Shown here: positions 6,529 to 53,578 of the stretch, piece by piece
How the letters are laid out: every line of letters begins with the position of its first letter
Position numbering within the stretch: position 1 is the first letter of the stretch
DNA from: Escherichia coli
Lineage (GTDB): Bacteria > Pseudomonadota > Gammaproteobacteria > Enterobacterales > Enterobacteriaceae
NCBI RefSeq assembly: GCF_965641715.1
Contig: NZ_OZ282453.1
Length of the DNA stretch: 64,000 nt
Reading direction: 5' to 3' (one strand)
Notes under the pieces: generated by a model
The model's database searches: none
Told to the model about the DNA's origin: nothing
What the model saw: the letters and a program-made list of their open reading frames with translations, nothing else
Program-made: the position numbers and the translations under genes

Positions 6529-6657
6529 ATGACAATAGAAAAACACGAAAGAAGCACTAAGGATTTGGTGAAAGCAGCAGTATCGGGATGGCTGGGCACT
6601 GCGCTTGAATTTATGGATTTCAAGAGTCATACGTGTCAACTATTTGATAAATATTAA
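6529..6657 (+). pseudogene. ydfJ: 5' fragment of MFS transporter gene ydfJ, interrupted by prophage insertion
   Basis: MTIEKHERSTKDLVKAAVSGWLGTALEFMDF then diverges into phage DNA and stops at 6655..6657; reading frame resumes at 52207 (MDFQLYSLGAALVF...). Confidence 0.8.
6607..6621. repeat. attL core (gaatttatggatttc), direct repeat with attR
   Basis: 15-nt sequence at the ydfJ/phage junction repeated (one T fewer) at 52202..52215. Confidence 0.6.
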
Positions 6658-6658
6658 A

Positions 6659-7939
6659 TTAATTTTTCATTGCTTCGTTATGGGGCATGGTTGGGGCAAA
6701 CTCGCTTAACTGTGTATTTAACAAAGCTACCTGTGCATTATTGTTTTCAGACATCCATTTTCCGTATACCTGAAATACCATTTGCGCATCTGCATGGCCC
6801 ATCTGGTTTGCTATAAATGCCGGGTTAGCACCAGCTGTCAGCGACCAGCAGGCATAAGTATGTCTCGACTGATATGATTTTCGATGGCGGAGTCCGGCAC
6901 GTTTTATCGCTGCGTCCCACATCTGCCTTATTGAGTCAACGGTAAAATGGTCACCATAATTTTTTACTCTCGCTGACACTTCAGGTTGAAAAACAAAGGT
7001 GCATTTTTGTTTTTCTGTTCTGCCATACTCTCTCAGGTGAACATCAATGATATGCTCTTTGCTCAGTCTCGTTAATGTCATCTGACTCCGGAGAGCGTCG
7101 ATTGCTGGCTTAATAAGATGAATGACCCGATTGGTTCCCGCCTGTGTTTTTGGTACCGTGAAACGGTCTTTTGCTAAATTTCTCCTGATCATCATTGTTC
7201 CATTTTTCAGATCTATGTCCTCCCATCCAAGTGCACACAGCTCACCAGGGCGAATGCCAGTATAAACAGAAACACACCATAAATTTTTTGCTTGCTGATT
7301 TCTGCACGCATCGATAAGACGGATAAATTCCTCCCGCGAAAGAGGATCCGGAATGGTTCTTGATTCCTTTAATGGCGAGATCCCCTTAAACGGATTATCT
7401 GCCAGGTAACCGTTATCAACACCAAACTGGAACACGGCGTTAAGATTTGTCATGTAATTATTTACAGTTACAGCCGATCTCCCTGGTTGTGTAACAATAT
7501 AGTTACTTTTGGGGATCTGGTATCCAGTCAGTAGCTCTTTACGAACCTCCAGTAATTTTTCTTTATTAATCGATGAGGCAAGATTTTTTTCACCGATTAT
7601 GCTCAGGATATTTTTGATGACGGCACGGTATGTGTTGAGTGATGTTTTGGCGACTTCAGTTTCTTTCAGTGCCAGAAATTTTTCAGCCAGTTCTTTTATG
7701 GTTAAATCTTGTCGGGCCTCACCAAATTTTTCCAGATTGCGTGAGGAGGGAAACTGTTTTGCATAGTCGAAAACACCAGTTTTTATTGCGTAACAAACAG
7801 AGGCGCGTAGTTCACCTGCAACGCGCCTGTTTTTTGCTGTGTCAGGAACCCCCAGATTTTCCCTGACTCTTACGCCTTTATAAACAAACCAGATACGTAA
7901 TTTCCCTCCATGGTTTTCCACGCCTGTCGGATATTTCAT
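6659..7939 (-). CDS. int: Phage integrase (tyrosine recombinase)
   Basis: ORF 6659..7954; C-terminal RHTYACWSLTAGANPAFIANQMGHADAQMVFQVYGKWM catalytic region; start placed at second ATG (MKYPTG) which has a purine-rich RBS. Confidence 0.9.
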   Translation of the reverse strand: MKYPTGVENHGGKLRIWFVYKGVRVRENLGVPDTAKNRRVAGELRASVCYAIKTGVFDYAKQFPSSRNLEKFGEARQDLTIKELAEKFLALKETEVAKTSLNTYRAVIKNILSIIGEKNLASSINKEKLLEVRKELLTGYQIPKSNYIVTQPGRSAVTVNNYMTNLNAVFQFGVDNGYLADNPFKGISPLKESRTIPDPLSREEFIRLIDACRNQQAKNLWCVSVYTGIRPGELCALGWEDIDLKNGTMMIRRNLAKDRFTVPKTQAGTNRVIHLIKPAIDALRSQMTLTRLSKEHIIDVHLREYGRTEKQKCTFVFQPEVSARVKNYGDHFTVDSIRQMWDAAIKRAGLRHRKSYQSRHTYACWSLTAGANPAFIANQMGHADAQMVFQVYGKWMSENNNAQVALLNTQLSEFAPTMPHNEAMKN

Positions 7940-7973
7940 TTCAACTTCTCTCATTAGTTAGTGTGGCTTTTAG

Positions 7974-8225
7974 TCAAGTAAGATGACGTCTTGGTCTCGC
8001 TGATGCCTGGCGCTCAATCCAGCGATCAATTTCTTCCAGGTTGTAAAAGCATGGACTGTTATCCCATGGCATACCGTCATGAGCGACATGCTTATATTCC
8101 CTTCCTTCCATAAACGATTTTTCCCGGGCCTTTTTTAACGTACCTTTTTTTATTCCTTTCAGCGCAATTAACTGCTCTTCGGATACCCATTTGCCGGGAG
8201 AGACAATCATGATTACTTCGCTCAT
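7974..8225 (-). CDS. xis: Excisionase-like protein
   Basis: 83-aa ORF immediately upstream of int on same strand; position and size typical of lambdoid Xis. Confidence 0.65.
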   Translation of the reverse strand: MSEVIMIVSPGKWVSEEQLIALKGIKKGTLKKAREKSFMEGREYKHVAHDGMPWDNSPCFYNLEEIDRWIERQASARPRRHLT

Positions 8226-46686: not shown

Positions 46687-49608
46687 GTGAATATGGCAGT
46701 AAAGATTTCAGGTGTACTGAAAGACGGCACAGGAAAACCGGTACAGAACTGCACAATCCAGCTGAAAGCAAAACGTAACAGCACCACGGTGGTGGTGAAC
46801 ACGCTGGCCTCAGAAAATCCGGATGAAGCCGGGCGTTACAGCATGGACGTTGAGTACGGGCAGTACAGCGTTATTCTGTTGGTGGAAGGATTCCCGCCGT
46901 CACATGCCGGGACCATCACCGTGTATGAAGATTCTCAACCCGGTACGCTGAATGATTTTCTCGGTGCCATGACGGAGGATGATGCCCGTCCGGAGGCACT
47001 GCGCCGTTTTGAACAGATGGTGGAAGAGGTGGCGCGTAACGCGTCCGTGGTGGCACAGAACACGGCAGCCGCGAAGAAGTCAGCCAGTGATGCCGGCACA
47101 TCTGCCCGTGAGGCGGCAACCCATGCGACTGATGCTGCAGATTCAGCACGTGCAGCCAGCACGTCAGCCGGACAGGCCGCTTCGTCGGCTCAGTCAGCGT
47201 CTTCCAGCGCAGGAACGGCATCAACAAAGGCCACTGAAGCGGAAAAAAGTGCTGCCGCTGCAGAGTCCTCAAAAAGCGCGGCAGCTACCAGTGCCGCTGC
47301 CGCGAAAACGTCAGAAACGAATGCTGCAGCGTCACAACAATCAGCCGCCACTTCTGCATCCACCGCGACTACGAAAGCGTCAGAAGCTGCCACCTCAGCC
47401 CGGGATGCGTCGGCTTCAAAAGAGGCGGCAAAATCATCAGAAACGAACGCATCCTCGAGCGCCAGTAGTGCAGCTTCCTCGGCAACGGCGGCAGCAAATT
47501 CCGCGAAGGCGGCAAAAACGTCCGAGACGAACGCCAGGTCTTCTGAGACGGCAGCGGGACAGAGCGCCTCAGCTGCGGCAGGCTCAAAAACAGCGGCTGC
47601 GTCGTCTGCCAGTGCCGCGTCAACAAGTGCCGGGCAGGCCTCAGCCAGTGCCACCGCTGCCGGAAAATCGGCAGAAAGCGCCGCATCGTCCGCTTCAACA
47701 GCCACAACGAAGGCTGGCGAAGCCACTGAACAGGCCAGCGCAGCAGCGAGGTCTGCTTCCGCAGCGAAGACATCCGAGACGAACGCGAAAGCGTCGGAAA
47801 CCAGCGCAGAATCCTCAAAAACGGCTGCCGCATCGTCCGCCAGTTCGGCGGCGTCATCGGCATCATCTGCGTCTGCTTCAAAAGATGAGGCGAGCAGACA
47901 GGCGTCAGCAGCAAAGGGCAGCGCCACGACGGCATCCACGAAGGCGACAGAGGCAGCTGGCAGTGCGACGGCGGCAGCTCAGAGCAAAAGTACGGCGGAA
48001 TCCGCGGCAACGCGCGCCGAGACAGCGGCAAAACGGGCAGAGGATATTGCATCCGCCGTGGCGCTTGAGGATGCGAGCACGACGAAAAAGGGGATAGTAC
48101 AGCTCAGCAGTGCGACTAACAGCACTTCCGAGTCACTGGCGGCAACGCCAAAAGCCGTTAAGGCCGCGTATGAGCTGGCTAACGGGAAATACACCGCACA
48201 GGATGCAACGACAGCACAGAAAGGGATAGTTCAGCTCAGCAGCGCGACCAACAGCACATCTGAAATGCTGGCGGCAACGCCAAAGTCGGTAAAGGCAGCC
48301 TATGACCTTGCTAACGGGAAATATACTGCTCAGGACGCTACGACAGCACAAAAAGGAATTGTCCAGCTCAGTAGTGCAACCAACAGCGCATCTGAAACGC
48401 TTGCCGCGACACCGAAAGCAGTGAAAGCAGCTAATGATAATGCGAATGGTCGGGTACCTTCTGCCCGTAAGGTGAATGGTAAGGCGCTTTCAGCGGATAT
48501 AACACTGACGCCGAAAGATATTGGTACGCTTAACTCAACAACAATGTCATTCAGCGGTGGTGCTGGTTGGTTCAAATTAGCAACGGTAACCATGCCACAG
48601 GCGAGTTCTGTTGTTTCAATTACGTTGATTGGTGGCGCGGGATTTAACGTGGGGTCACCTCAACAGGCAGGTATATCTGAACTTGTTTTGCGTGCAGGTA
48701 ATGGTAATCCGAAGGGGATTACTGGTGCTTTATGGCAGCGCACATCGACAGGGTTTACAAATTTTGCCTGGGTCAATACATCTGGTGATACTTACGATAT
48801 TTACGTTGCAATCGGAAATTATGCGACTGGTGTAAATATTCAATGGGATTATACCAGTAATGCCAGCGTGACTATTCATACGTCACCAGCATATTCTGCT
48901 AATAAGCCGGAAGGGTTAACGGACGGTACAGTTTATTCACTCTATACGCCATCAGAGCAGTTTTATCCGCCTGGCGCACCAATCCCGTGGCCATCAGATA
49001 CCGTTCCGTCTGGTTATGCCCTGATGCAGGGGCAGACTTTTGACAAATCTGCTTACCCGAAACTTGCAACCGCTTATCCGTCAGGCGTGATCCCTGATAT
49101 GCGTGGCTGGACGATTAAGGGCAAACCTGCCAGTGGTCGGGCCGTATTGTCTCAGGAACAGGACGGCATTAAATCGCACACCCACAGCGCCAGCGCATCC
49201 AGTACGGATTTGGGGACGAAAACCACATCGTCGTTTGATTACGGCACTAAATCCACGAATAACACCGGGGCGCATACGCACAGTGTGAGCGGTACAGCCG
49301 CAAGTGCCGGAAACCATACTCATAGTGTCACAGGCGCATCAGCAGTCAGCCAGTGGTCACAAAATGGGTCAGTACATAAGGTAGTGTCTGCGGCCAGTGT
49401 GAATACAAGTGCTGCAGGAGCGCACACTCATAGTGTCAGCGGCACAGCTGCATCTGCAGGTGCTCACGCACATACTGTCGGTATTGGTGCTCATACGCAC
49501 TCTGTTGCGATTGGCTCACATGGACACACCATCACCGTTAACGCTGCTGGTAACGCGGAAAACACTGTCAAAAACATCGCATTTAACTACATTGTGAGGC
49601 TTGCATAA
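46687..49608 (+). CDS. stf: Side tail fibre protein (Stf) with expanded internal repeats
   Basis: [27 protein letters not shown]... lambda Stf-like N-terminus, long Ala/Ser-rich tract, three near-identical ~40-aa repeats, HTHS repeats, C-terminus [24 protein letters not shown]. Confidence 0.9.
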
Positions 49609-50183
49609 TGGCATTCAGAATGAGTGAACAACCACGGACCATAAAAATTTATAATCTGCTGGCAGGAACTAATGAATTTATTGGTGAAGGTGACGCATAT
49701 ATTCCGCCTCATACAGGTCTGCCAGCAAACAGTTCCTATATTGCACCGCCAGATATTCCGGCTGGCTTCGTGGCTGTTTTCAACAGTGATGAGGCATCGT
49801 GGCATCTCGTTGAAGATCATCGGGGTAAAACCGTCTATGACGTGGCTTCCGGCGACGCGTTATTTATTTCTGAACTTGGCCCATTACCGGAAAATATCAC
49901 CTGGTTATCCCCGGAAGGGGAGTTTCAGAAGTGGAACGGCACAGCCTGGGTGAAGGATACGGAAGCAGCAAAACTGTTCCGGATCCGGGAGGCGGAAGAA
50001 ACAAAAAACAACCTGATGCAGGTAGCCAGTGAGCATATTGCGCCGCTTCAGGATGCTGCAGATCTGGAAATTGCAACGGAGGAAGAAATCTCGTTGCTGG
50101 AAGCATGGAAAAAGTATCGGGTATTGCTGAACCGTGTTGATACGTCAACTGCACAGGATATTGAATGGCCAGCACTGCCGTAG
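49608..50183 (+). CDS. tfa: Tail fibre assembly protein (Tfa)
   Basis: 191 aa, ATGA overlap with stf; Tfa-like sequence. Confidence 0.85.
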
Positions 50184-50280
50184 GGTAAAACATATAAATT
50201 CTATAATTAGATGTATCTTTCCATTTACGGCAAGGAAGGGGGCTTGGAAGACGTAAAGCATCTCACACCGAGATTATTTT

Positions 50281-50871
50281 TTATATGTCAGGTGTCTGAA
50301 GTTTTGCTTTGGCTCTTAAAATGGTTTGCCGCGAGGTTTTGAATTCCCGGGCAATGGCACTTATACTTACACCTGACTTAATTCGTTCGAATACCACCTG
50401 TTTCTGTTCTTCATTTAACACAGGTGGTCGACCAAAACGTTTCCCTGCGCCGCGGGCTCTTACTATCCCGGAATGAGTGCGTTCAAGTAAAAGGTCTCGT
50501 TCAAATTCAGCGACTGCTGAAATTACTTGCATCATCATTTTTCCTGTTGGACTGGTCAGGTCAATGCCCCCCAATGCTAAGCAATGCACTCTGATACCTG
50601 TTTCGGTCAGTTGTTCCACTGTTTTCCTGATATCCATTGCATTACAACCAAGGCGATCCAGTTTTGTCACAATCAATTGATCACCACATTTCAGGCGAGC
50701 AAGCAACCGGTTAAAACCAGGACGCTCACTGGTTGCTGCTGAGCCGCTAATGTGTTCTTCGATTATTTGCTGAGGTTTGATTTTAAAACCTGCACTTTCG
50801 ATTTCCCGGCGTTGATTTTCGGTGGTCTGATCCAGCGTTGATATCCGACAGTAAGCAAAAATTCGAGACAT
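50281..50871 (-). CDS. pin: Serine recombinase / DNA invertase Pin
   Basis: [20 protein letters not shown]... resolvase catalytic Ser motif and C-terminal HTH; adjacent to tail fibre genes. Confidence 0.9.
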
Positions 50872-51187
50872 AGTGAGATTCTATACGAAATTGGTGTTCA
50901 TATCATAATGCATCTCAGAAAATAATTTTGATTATTTTTGTACATATTTGTATGTACACGTTCGAAAATAAACGAATGCGTATGCAACCCCGTAATTTTG
51001 GTGAGACCCAAAATCGATTTTGTGAAAAATGGCTTTAACTCGGTTTGTTTTTCGAGTTCCGGGCGGACTCAAGGAAGAAGAATAGTGTTGCGTGTTATTT
51101 TAACCAGATTTCAAGTTGTTTGGTCGTGGAAAAGTGGAGCAAAATGTTGTTAAAGTGGAAAAATGATAAAAAAGTAAGTTTATTATA

Positions 51188-51421
51188 TTACATTTTACCA
51201 TTTAAATTTTGGTTGTCTTTAAGAACTGATATCGCTGTTTGTAATAATTCTTTGTTATCCAGCCATGATTTTTTCTTTATGTTTCCTTCAATGTAATCAA
51301 GCAATGTTCTGGTATTGATAGGTCTTCCCTGTTTTGCTACTTCCACTACAGCATCCCCTAGGATAATTCTTACTTCAGGAAGCTGCGCAGGGAACCACTT
51401 TAGGGTGTCTTTTGATTTCAT
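51188..51421 (-). CDS. ydfK: YdfK/YnaE-like protein
   Basis: MKSKDTLKWFPAQLPEVRIILGDAVVEVAKQGRPINTRTLLDYIEGNIKKKSWLDNKELLQTAISVLK...; resembles remembered YdfK. Confidence 0.7.
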   Translation of the reverse strand: MKSKDTLKWFPAQLPEVRIILGDAVVEVAKQGRPINTRTLLDYIEGNIKKKSWLDNKELLQTAISVLKDNQNLNGKM

Positions 51422-52201
51422 GAAGATATTCCTTAAAATATTATTGATTTTCATTGCGATATTGTATGTCTGATTCAGGATATGTTGGCTTATACATCGG
51501 TTTTGTCTGGGTTATTGGATATGCCAATCCCTAATTTTATTAGGGCATGACTAAAAATGCTGAATATGATAAGGAGAGAAGTGATTATCAGTATGCTGTT
51601 CATATAGCCTCGAATTAGTAATGTGTTATATATGATATAGTTGACAATTTTTATCTTGGGTGTTCTTAAAGTTCGTAGATAAACATTGTCGTTTCAGGTA
51701 TACAGGAATGCTAACAGGTGGCAGCAAAAATCAGGCGGTTTATGGCGCAAGCTGAAGCGGCAACTGCAAACTATCTTATGCAGAGACTCTACACGGATTG
51801 GGTTTAAAAGTATACATAGATAACAGTTTTTATCTGAAGAAGAAAAATATCAAGGTGATATAGCCTATATGCCTTTGATGCGGAGGAATGAATGTGATGG
51901 GAGTGATGTATCTGAATAGTTGAAAAACCGCAGACACGCCTTATGCAAGAACGTGCTGCGGTTGGCTGGTAAATTTTTCGATAGTGTGAGTATTGAATGA
52001 TTTCCAGCCGTTCTTGATTTTACGCATAAATCCATGAAAAAACTACTTATCTGTTGGGGAGTTTTTTTGGGGCATATATGGGACAGAAATAGGCCCCAGA
52101 TAGACACTGAGATCGAACTTAGGATGCTTTTTAAAAAATGCAACTATCTGAAAAAACCTAGAAAACGCCAAGGAAACCACAGGATGGGAAAAAACACCTG
52201 T

Positions 52202-52215
52202 GAATTATGGATTTC
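52202..52215. repeat. attR core (gaattatggatttc)
   Basis: Direct repeat of attL core at the right phage/ydfJ junction. Confidence 0.6.
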
Positions 52216-53490
52216 CAGTTATATTCGCTCGGCGCAGCGTTAGTGTTTCATGAAATATTTTTTCCTGAATCATCAACGGCAATGGCGTTAATTCTGGCAA
52301 TGGGAACCTACGGTGCAGGTTATGTGGCGCGTATTGTCGGAGCATTTATTTTCGGCAAAATGGGCGACAGAATAGGGCGTAAAAAAGTGCTCTTTATTAC
52401 CATCACCACGATGGGGATCTGTACCACCTTAATTGGTGTGTTACCGACCTATGCACAGATTGGTGTTTTTGCACCCATCTTGCTGGTGACGCTGCGTATT
52501 ATTCAGGGGTTGGGTGCAGGTGCGGAAATTTCCGGTGCCGGTACGATGCTGGCGGAATATGCGCCAAAAGGTAAGCGCGGAATTATCTCCTCATTTGTAG
52601 CTATGGGAACTAACTGCGGAACCTTGAGCGCAACGGCAATCTGGGCCTTTATGTTCTTCATTCTCAGTAAAGAGGAACTGCTGGCGTGGGGATGGCGTAT
52701 ACCGTTCCTGGCGAGCGTTGTCGTGATGGTCTTTGCTATCTGGTTACGTATGAATCTGAAAGAAAGCCCGGTCTTTGAGAAGGTTAATGACAGCAACCAA
52801 CCGACAGCAAAACCTGCACCTGCTGGTAGCATGTTCCAGAGCAAATCCTTCTGGCTGGCAACAGGGCTGCGTTTTGGTCAGGCGGGTAACTCCGGGTTAA
52901 TTCAGACTTTCCTTGCAGGCTATTTAGTGCAGACGTTATTGTTTAACAAAGCAATTCCAACAGATGCATTGATGATTAGTTCGATTCTCGGCTTTATGAC
53001 CATTCCGTTCCTTGGTTGGTTATCCGATAAAATTGGTCGCCGGATCCCGTATATTATTATGAATACCTCCGCGATTGTGCTGGCATGGCCAATGCTTTCT
53101 ATCATCGTAGATAAAAGCTATGCCCCGAGCACCATTATGGTTGCACTGATTGTGATTCATAACTGTGCGGTGCTGGGATTATTTGCTCTGGAAAACATTA
53201 CCATGGCAGAAATGTTCGGCTGTAAAAACCGTTTTACCCGGATGGCTATTTCTAAAGAAATTGGTGGTCTTATCGCTTCCGGTTTTGGTCCTATCCTGGC
53301 GGGTATTTTCTGCACCATGACGGAATCCTGGTATCCGATCGCCATTATGATCATGGCATATTCAGTGATTGGTTTAATCTCTGCGCTGAAAATGCCAGAA
53401 GTGAAAGACCGTGATTTAAGTGCGCTGGAAGACGCTGCGGAAGATCAACCGCGTGTTGTAAGAGTTGCGCAACCTTCCAGAAGTCTGTAA
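52207..53490 (+). pseudogene. ydfJ: 3' portion of MFS transporter gene ydfJ (N-terminally truncated by prophage)
   Basis: 427-aa ORF starting at the Met of ...EFMDFQLYS...; multi-TM MFS sequence; continues the frame begun at 6529. Confidence 0.8.
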
Positions 53491-53578
53491 ATCCTCAATC
53501 CCTTCTCTTACCGGAGAGGGGATTTTTATTCATATAACAAAACATGTAGCTTGCCATATTTAAATTTAAGGAATTGTT

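Follow-up and report, generated by a model that had tools for sequence, protein, structure and literature searches.

The window, a stretch of 64,000 nucleotides of Escherichia coli DNA (contig NZ_OZ282453.1), carries an open reading frame (ORF) at positions 52207–53490 on the plus strand, which starts with an ATG at 52207–52209 and encodes 427 aa followed by a stop codon. This ORF, here called ydfJ', corresponds to codons 29–455 of the MHS-family MFS transporter YdfJ. Its product matches Pfam MFS_1 and scores 451.8 bits (E = 2e-135) against the NCBIfam model TIGR00883 (metabolite/H+ symporter, family TC 2.A.1.6), against 462.4 bits for intact YdfJ. As the score exceeds the curated cutoff of 443.45 bits for the whole protein, ydfJ' is not a chance ORF. 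In strain CP131_Sichuan ydfJ is uninterrupted, encodes 455 aa and lies in the gene order rspA-rspB-ydfJ-ydfI; the product of ydfJ' is collinear with residues 29–455 of this protein. The initial annotation had reported a 427-aa in-frame ORF for an N-terminally truncated transporter lacking about 30 residues, which agrees with our results, the comparison with the 455-aa protein giving 28 missing residues; its start coordinate, 52202, lies 5 nt too far to the left. Directly after the ydfJ stop codon and before ydfI, our scan identified a native hairpin followed by a U-run (53497–53524, plus strand; fold -17.3 kcal/mol, z = -4.6) that resembles an intrinsic terminator.

Upstream of ydfJ' lies a lambdoid, mEp460-like prophage of about 45.6 kb (6622–52204) that appears to be complete by alignment to Escherichia phage mEp460_ev081 (45,865 bp). 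In the first half of the element (6622–31000) 86% of the length aligns to this phage with 98.7% identity, and in the second half (31001–52206) 94% aligns with 97.7% identity. Adjoining attL we found, as expected for a lambda-type element, an uninterrupted gene for a 431-aa tyrosine integrase with an N-terminal arm-DNA-binding domain (6659–7954, minus strand; Arm-DNA-bind_2, 5.7e-24; Phage_integrase, 2.3e-18) and a gene for a putative excisionase of 83 aa (7974–8225, minus strand; Pfam DUF1233, 1.6e-31). When the two phage-side arms were joined, the reconstructed 415-nt attP was present as a contiguous sequence, with 98.6–99.8% identity, in four phage genomes (mEp460_ev081, PhiR42_1, Tritos, and HannyBb), as a lambda-type attP should be in a free phage. 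Judged by the uninterrupted genes and the near-identity to isolated phages, the prophage is predicted to be capable of excision and integration.

Two tRNA genes are present in the prophage on the plus strand, for tRNA-Met (CAT) and tRNA-Arg (TCT), at 21134–21209 and 21310–21386. In lambdoid phages, tRNA genes are commonly found ahead of the late region. The attR end of the prophage carries stf, tfa, the serine invertase gene pin, ydfK, and ynfT. The pin gene (50281–50871, minus strand) is located next to stf/tfa, and neither flanking inverted repeats nor an alternative tail-fibre segment was detected between 46000 and 51500; it looks like an orphan invertase gene, similar to pinQ in K-12.

To define the junctions, we aligned attP from the free phage mEp460_ev081, attB from uninterrupted ydfJ, and the attL and attR of the window. 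All four sites have an exact 11-bp core, TTATGGATTTC, in common, as would be the case for lambda-type recombination. It is located at 6611–6621 in attL (extended, 6606–6621), where the left side is bacterial and the right side phage, and at 52205–52215 in attR, where the left side is phage and the right side bacterial. In attR the core holds the ATG of ydfJ' and is imperfectly extended to 52201–52215 (TGAATTATGGATTTC). The layout of attP is ...AACACCTGTGAATT-ATGGATTTC/AAGAGTCATACG... and that of attB is ...CTGTGCTTG-AATTTATGGATTTC/CAGTTATATTCG...; an imperfect extension, which includes a single 1-nt indel, brings the core to 15–16 bp. A length of 18 or 19 bp has been published for the att sequence of ydfJ prophages (PMC8112680), with which our alignment is compatible. 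A 9-nt repeat, GATTTCCAG, found at 51999 and 52210, was considered as a secondary att site and dismissed, as a short repeat in two copies is compatible with chance.

Within ydfJ the core encodes F28-M29-D30-F31. The claim that the right junction of a prophage lies inside ydfJ is borne out by this four-way alignment, and an ATG is indeed located at the junction. It is not created there, however: the native Met29 codon sits in the core that is also carried by the attP of the phage, so that recombination preserves the start codon. Likewise, the sequence at the start of the ORF had been taken as bacterial, but 'atggatttc' belongs to the core common to attP and attB, and only the following 'cag...' is exclusively bacterial. 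The phage-arm side of the junction contributes an in-frame TGA (52201–52203, plus strand), located two codons ahead of the ATG; attP and five different attR sequences all have this stop codon. As this codon closes the frame, Met29 is the first possible start of the remnant.

The phage-derived attP arm beside the core (52062–52204) is conserved between the window, the K-12 Qin prophage, DSM103263, XH987, and the O121 nleC phage, despite the different cargo of these elements, and is contiguous with the integrase side in free phage genomes. It presumably contains the arm-type sites of the integrase and binding sites for accessory proteins. In view of this conservation across unrelated prophages, it is recombination, and not the expression of ydfJ, that constrains the approximately 145 nt upstream of the ydfJ' ATG. 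In or near the conserved arm there are short direct repeats (TGAAAAAAC; TATCTGAA[A/G]AA), at 52035–52043, 52145–52157, and 51831–51841; these may be integrase arm-type sites or accessory-protein sites, or may have arisen by chance. A strong GC-rich hairpin followed by UUUUUC, similar to an intrinsic terminator, is found on the minus strand at 51927–51964 (fold -20.7 kcal/mol, z = -4.2), at a distance of about 245–280 nt to the att core. On circularization of the phage genome it would come to lie downstream of int, across attP, where lambda has its retroregulation site tI/sib. An Rfam search of the phage end gave a match to CssrB (RF02799), carried by this hairpin, that we rejected, as it reached 28.7 bits against a gathering threshold of 76 and only the terminal hairpin aligned well; an miRNA match in the same search was spurious.

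At the other end of the prophage, the native ydfJ promoter and ribosome-binding region remain at attL, ahead of a stub ORF of 42 aa (6529–6657, plus strand). The stub uses the native ydfJ start and consists of 28 native codons followed by 14 phage-derived codons. This exact 42-aa sequence is present on at least 1000 public contigs, and it is the equivalent of YnfP of K-12 (ynfP, b4534), which has a length of 36 aa. YnfP has been detected by chromosomal tagging and is listed with other small proteins (Table 1 of PMC6001520), and the native start signals at attL are therefore active. Deletion of ynfP led to slower recovery after nitrogen starvation in one preprint (10.1101/2020.03.30.016519).

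To evaluate the consequence of the truncation for the protein, we used an AlphaFold2 model of intact YdfJ based on an alignment of 82 sequences (pLDDT 93.5, pTM 0.91). In the model, helix 1 comprises residues 10–45. As the remnant starts at residue 29, residues 10–28, or 19 of the 36 residues of this helix, are lost, and the complete 12-helix MFS core with a full-length TM1 is therefore absent from the remnant. The residues encoded by the att core belong to E-x-Y-D-F, the TM1 motif with the highest conservation in the MHS family. Two residues of the longer motif G-x-x-x-E-x-[Y/M]-D-F are near-invariant among the 82 representatives, G23 (81/82) and E27 (80/82), and both are lost from the remnant, which retains D30 and F31. 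At position 29, where YdfJ has its methionine, Tyr is found in 69 and Met in 4 of the 82 relatives.

The region ahead of the remnant offers few recognizable signals for its expression. No Shine-Dalgarno sequence was found within 5–13 nt of the ATG; the only stretch with complementarity to the anti-Shine-Dalgarno sequence is GGATGGG, 16–18 nt away. The 81-nt start region is also more structured than the native start, with predicted folding energies of -18.2 and -6.2 kcal/mol, respectively. A simple scan for sigma-70 consensus sites on the plus strand between 51440 and 52207 yielded none. An upstream overlapping ORF (52034–52243, plus strand, 69 aa) was considered as a gene or partner for translational coupling, and was discarded: it has no Pfam match, and in DSM103263 a 1-nt deletion shifts its frame. 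The phage end is AT-rich (32–39% G+C), and ydfJ is listed as an H-NS-regulated gene in one paper. In K-12, ydfJ transcripts are measurable by RNA-seq and are differentially expressed after induction of DicC. In the parts of the supplements of a K-12 absolute-proteome study that were searched, ydfJ and ydfI were not found, which is weak negative evidence.

Transcription could reach ydfJ' from the prophage. All late genes up to tfa (end 50183) are located on the plus strand, as is ydfJ', and a scan of 49500–52300 found no terminator-like site on this strand; the only strong hairpin in this interval has its U-run on the minus strand. Phage read-through is for these reasons the most plausible source of ydfJ' transcripts, if there are any, and expression of ydfJ' may rise on prophage induction. 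A more specific reading of the same observations is that ydfJ' and ydfI are expressed mainly on induction, by Q-antiterminated late transcripts that cross attR from the stf-tfa end. The escape synthesis of genes flanking lambda is the classical analogue of such late read-through. However, about 2 kb of genes in the opposite orientation (pin, ydfK, and ynfT) intervene between tfa and attR, translation of ydfJ' would still lack a Shine-Dalgarno sequence, and a strong terminator follows ydfJ'. We consider expression mainly by this route a tentative proposal, more doubtful than not.

We next determined how common the junction is. Of 5,426 complete E. coli genomes, 5,425 contain a match of the ydfJ' DNA to annotated ydfJ. 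This attR junction was found in 3,168 of the 5,426 (58%), K-12 and a BL21(DE3)-derived strain included, and 2,009 have an uninterrupted attB. The 427-codon frame was uninterrupted in all seven prophage-bearing genomes sampled, among them K-12, in which intQ is a pseudogene. Among these seven genomes 18 polymorphic codons have synonymous changes only and 2 are amino-acid-changing, both through changes private to the window allele; six of the genomes have no non-synonymous differences among them, with pS up to 4.7%. The window allele has two private changes among 11 alleles, M96T and A448V in the numbering of the intact protein (codons 68 and 420; 52408–52410 and 53464–53466), by which it also differs from K-12. 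M96 is a hydrophobic position beside the near-invariant M97, and A448 lies in a C-terminal tail that is not conserved; with so few changes, relaxed selection cannot be claimed. In two strains with an empty attB the locus shows lesions: in E. coli N24 (L007 1520–2887) ydfJ has an internal stop and ydfI is frameshifted, and in strain 98202 (L005 443–1462) rspB has an internal stop, although sequencing errors are possible in both. If real, these lesions indicate that the locus is not uniformly maintained even without a prophage.

The intact frame raises the question whether the truncated YdfJ is made and works, as a 427-aa protein that starts at Met29, is translated from phage-end transcripts, and transports its substrate or leaks ions such as K+. 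In line with such a protein are the conserved frame and the scarcity of non-synonymous differences described above, the TIGR00883 score above the family cutoff, the listing of a 427-aa protein for MG1655 in RefSeq and UniProt, and the response of K-12 ydfJ to DicC together with its H-NS listing. Low dN/dS is nevertheless equally expected if the insertions are recent and recurrent and the gene was under constraint as long as it was intact. The K-12 remnant differs from the intact allele of strain 98202 at just 2 synonymous sites, which left almost no time for decay, so that the intact frame is a weak argument for function; for the same reason we set aside dN/dS among the 11 alleles as a test of continued function. 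Present in 58% of complete genomes, the truncated state is evidently tolerated. With respect to topology, the negatively charged N-terminus of the remnant could be translocated, which would yield a protein of 11.5 helices with the correct orientation; against a working protein stands the loss of half of TM1 with G23 and E27.

Two further observations favour a product. A K-12 ydfJ deletion was azithromycin-resistant in one high-throughput growth screen, but the phenotype in this single screen could also be due to polarity on ydfI or to an effect of the marker on this gene. In a table that cites TCDB, YdfJ has the label 'K+; functions as an ion channel', which probably goes back to work of Buurman et al. 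from 2004. Set against these observations are the lack of a Shine-Dalgarno sequence at 5–13 nt, the structured start region, the lack of a consensus promoter, and the fact that the protein was not found in those K-12 proteome supplements that were searched. Overall, we think it unlikely that a working YdfJ' is produced, and improbable that the remnant is a real, selected product with an altered activity, such as an ion leak or K+ conductance.

The junction in the window is the same as that of the Qin prophage in K-12. The attR-proximal 300 nt (approximately) and the start of the remnant ORF align nearly base for base with MG1655, a 427-aa ORF starts from Met29, and the N-terminal stub is located at the other end of the element. 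The neighbouring genes also correspond, with ynfT, ydfK, pinQ, and tfaQ on one side and ydfI, ydfZ, and rspR on the other. The MG1655 annotation gives ydfJ (b1543) as a CDS of 427 aa, whose overlap with the Qin boundary is 9 nt, and places ynfP at the other end. At 90% the window and K-12 proteins cluster together under the name YDFJ_ECOLI, and public databases contain the exact sequences. The two elements differ in that Qin is a decayed remnant of about 20 kb with an IS2 insertion and the intQ pseudogene, whereas the prophage in the window measures 45.6 kb and its int and xis are uninterrupted. The K-12 case has been described as promoter loss plus a 28-codon truncation (PMC6379469), ydfJ is a common integration site that is occupied in many strains including K-12 (PMC8112680), and the NCBI pipeline PGAP annotates the remnant in other genomes as a pseudogene ('incomplete; missing N-terminus'). 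The prophage-truncated ydfJ junction is thus an ordinary one that is already known, both in annotations and in the literature.

Several other systems are comparable. The lambdoid 'PPydfJ' prophages of STEC and EPEC use the same integration locus and core, and the nleC-carrying prophage of O121:H19 has the conserved att arm and core in common with the window. These prophages differ in their cargo of type III effectors and often form tandem clusters, whereas the window contains a single element with stf/tfa/pin/ydfK/ynfT at that end. Site-specific integration within a coding gene, with the att core in conserved coding sequence, is likewise seen for e14 in icd and Rac in ttcA. The former duplicates the icd 3' end and the latter gives TtcA a variant N-terminus (PMC6379469). 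Unlike in these two cases, the phage arm in the window contributes nothing beyond a stop codon: it brings no replacement N-terminus, promoter, or Shine-Dalgarno sequence, and the host ydfJ is therefore truncated. Matches to 'ydfJ' in papers on Bacillus and Staphylococcus concern unrelated genes. A high number of ydfJ SNPs in an isobutanol-tolerance study was also set aside as unrelated; this count may well be an artefact of an old split-gene annotation spanning all of Qin.

Active lysogeny is exemplified by Listeria phage phi10403S in comK, where a temperate phage resides inside a host ORF and precise excision restores the gene. The window resembles this system in its structural prerequisites only: a phage in a host ORF, int, xis, and an exact core shared between the two ends, so that excision would rebuild the 455-codon ydfJ. 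One could accordingly envisage the prophage as a reversible switch: when the transporter is required, ydfJ and the rspAB-ydfJ-ydfI neighbourhood would be restored by a regulated excision without lysis, and re-integration would turn the gene off again. Among the 5,426 genomes both the occupied site (3,168) and the empty site (2,009) are common, which suggests frequent turnover, but ordinary lysogeny by a widely distributed family of phages with the ydfJ attB as target accounts for this equally well (PMC8112680). Moreover, the junction is fixed in K-12, which lacks the capacity for excision owing to the intQ pseudogene, with no known cost. We regard a switch of this kind as very improbable.

Taken together, the data make it probable, with good confidence from the sequence comparisons, that ydfJ' is a poorly expressed and functionally crippled relic at the attR of an mEp460-like prophage, and not a working transporter. 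The phage was inserted by a lambda-type tyrosine integrase within the 5' part of chromosomal ydfJ, by recombination inside the short core TTATGGATTTC (attP; ydfJ codons 28–31), which was duplicated upon integration. At attL, the native promoter, ribosome-binding region, and first 28 codons now lead into phage DNA and yield the 42-aa stub, and at attR the remaining 427 codons begin at the native Met29, directly behind the stop codon in the phage arm. Any transcription that reaches ydfJ' is probably phage read-through, for instance by late transcripts on induction. As the remnant has no Shine-Dalgarno sequence at a working distance, no consensus promoter, a structured start, and only half of TM1, little or no functional product is expected, and both low expression and loss of function are predicted on these grounds. 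With int and xis both uninterrupted and one and the same core at either end, excision should restore the full 455-codon ydfJ exactly.

The main value of these findings lies in annotation and in the interpretation of experiments; they reveal no new biology. Databases disagree on the remnant, which is a 427-aa protein in the MG1655 RefSeq entry and UniProt and a pseudogene according to PGAP. If the remnant were a real, selected product after all, more than half of E. coli strains would make a shortened MFS protein that starts in the middle of TM1, under control of the phage end, H-NS, or induction, and the in-frame ATG in the core of the phage would be functionally relevant. Most complete E. coli genomes (3,168/5,426) have the truncated ydfJ, as do K-12 and a BL21(DE3)-derived strain. 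Every result on ydfJ from K-12 knockouts, expression studies, or transporter screens therefore concerns a gene without its promoter and without half of TM1, and the physiology of YdfJ, encoded beside rspAB and ydfI, would be better studied in a strain with an empty attB than in K-12.
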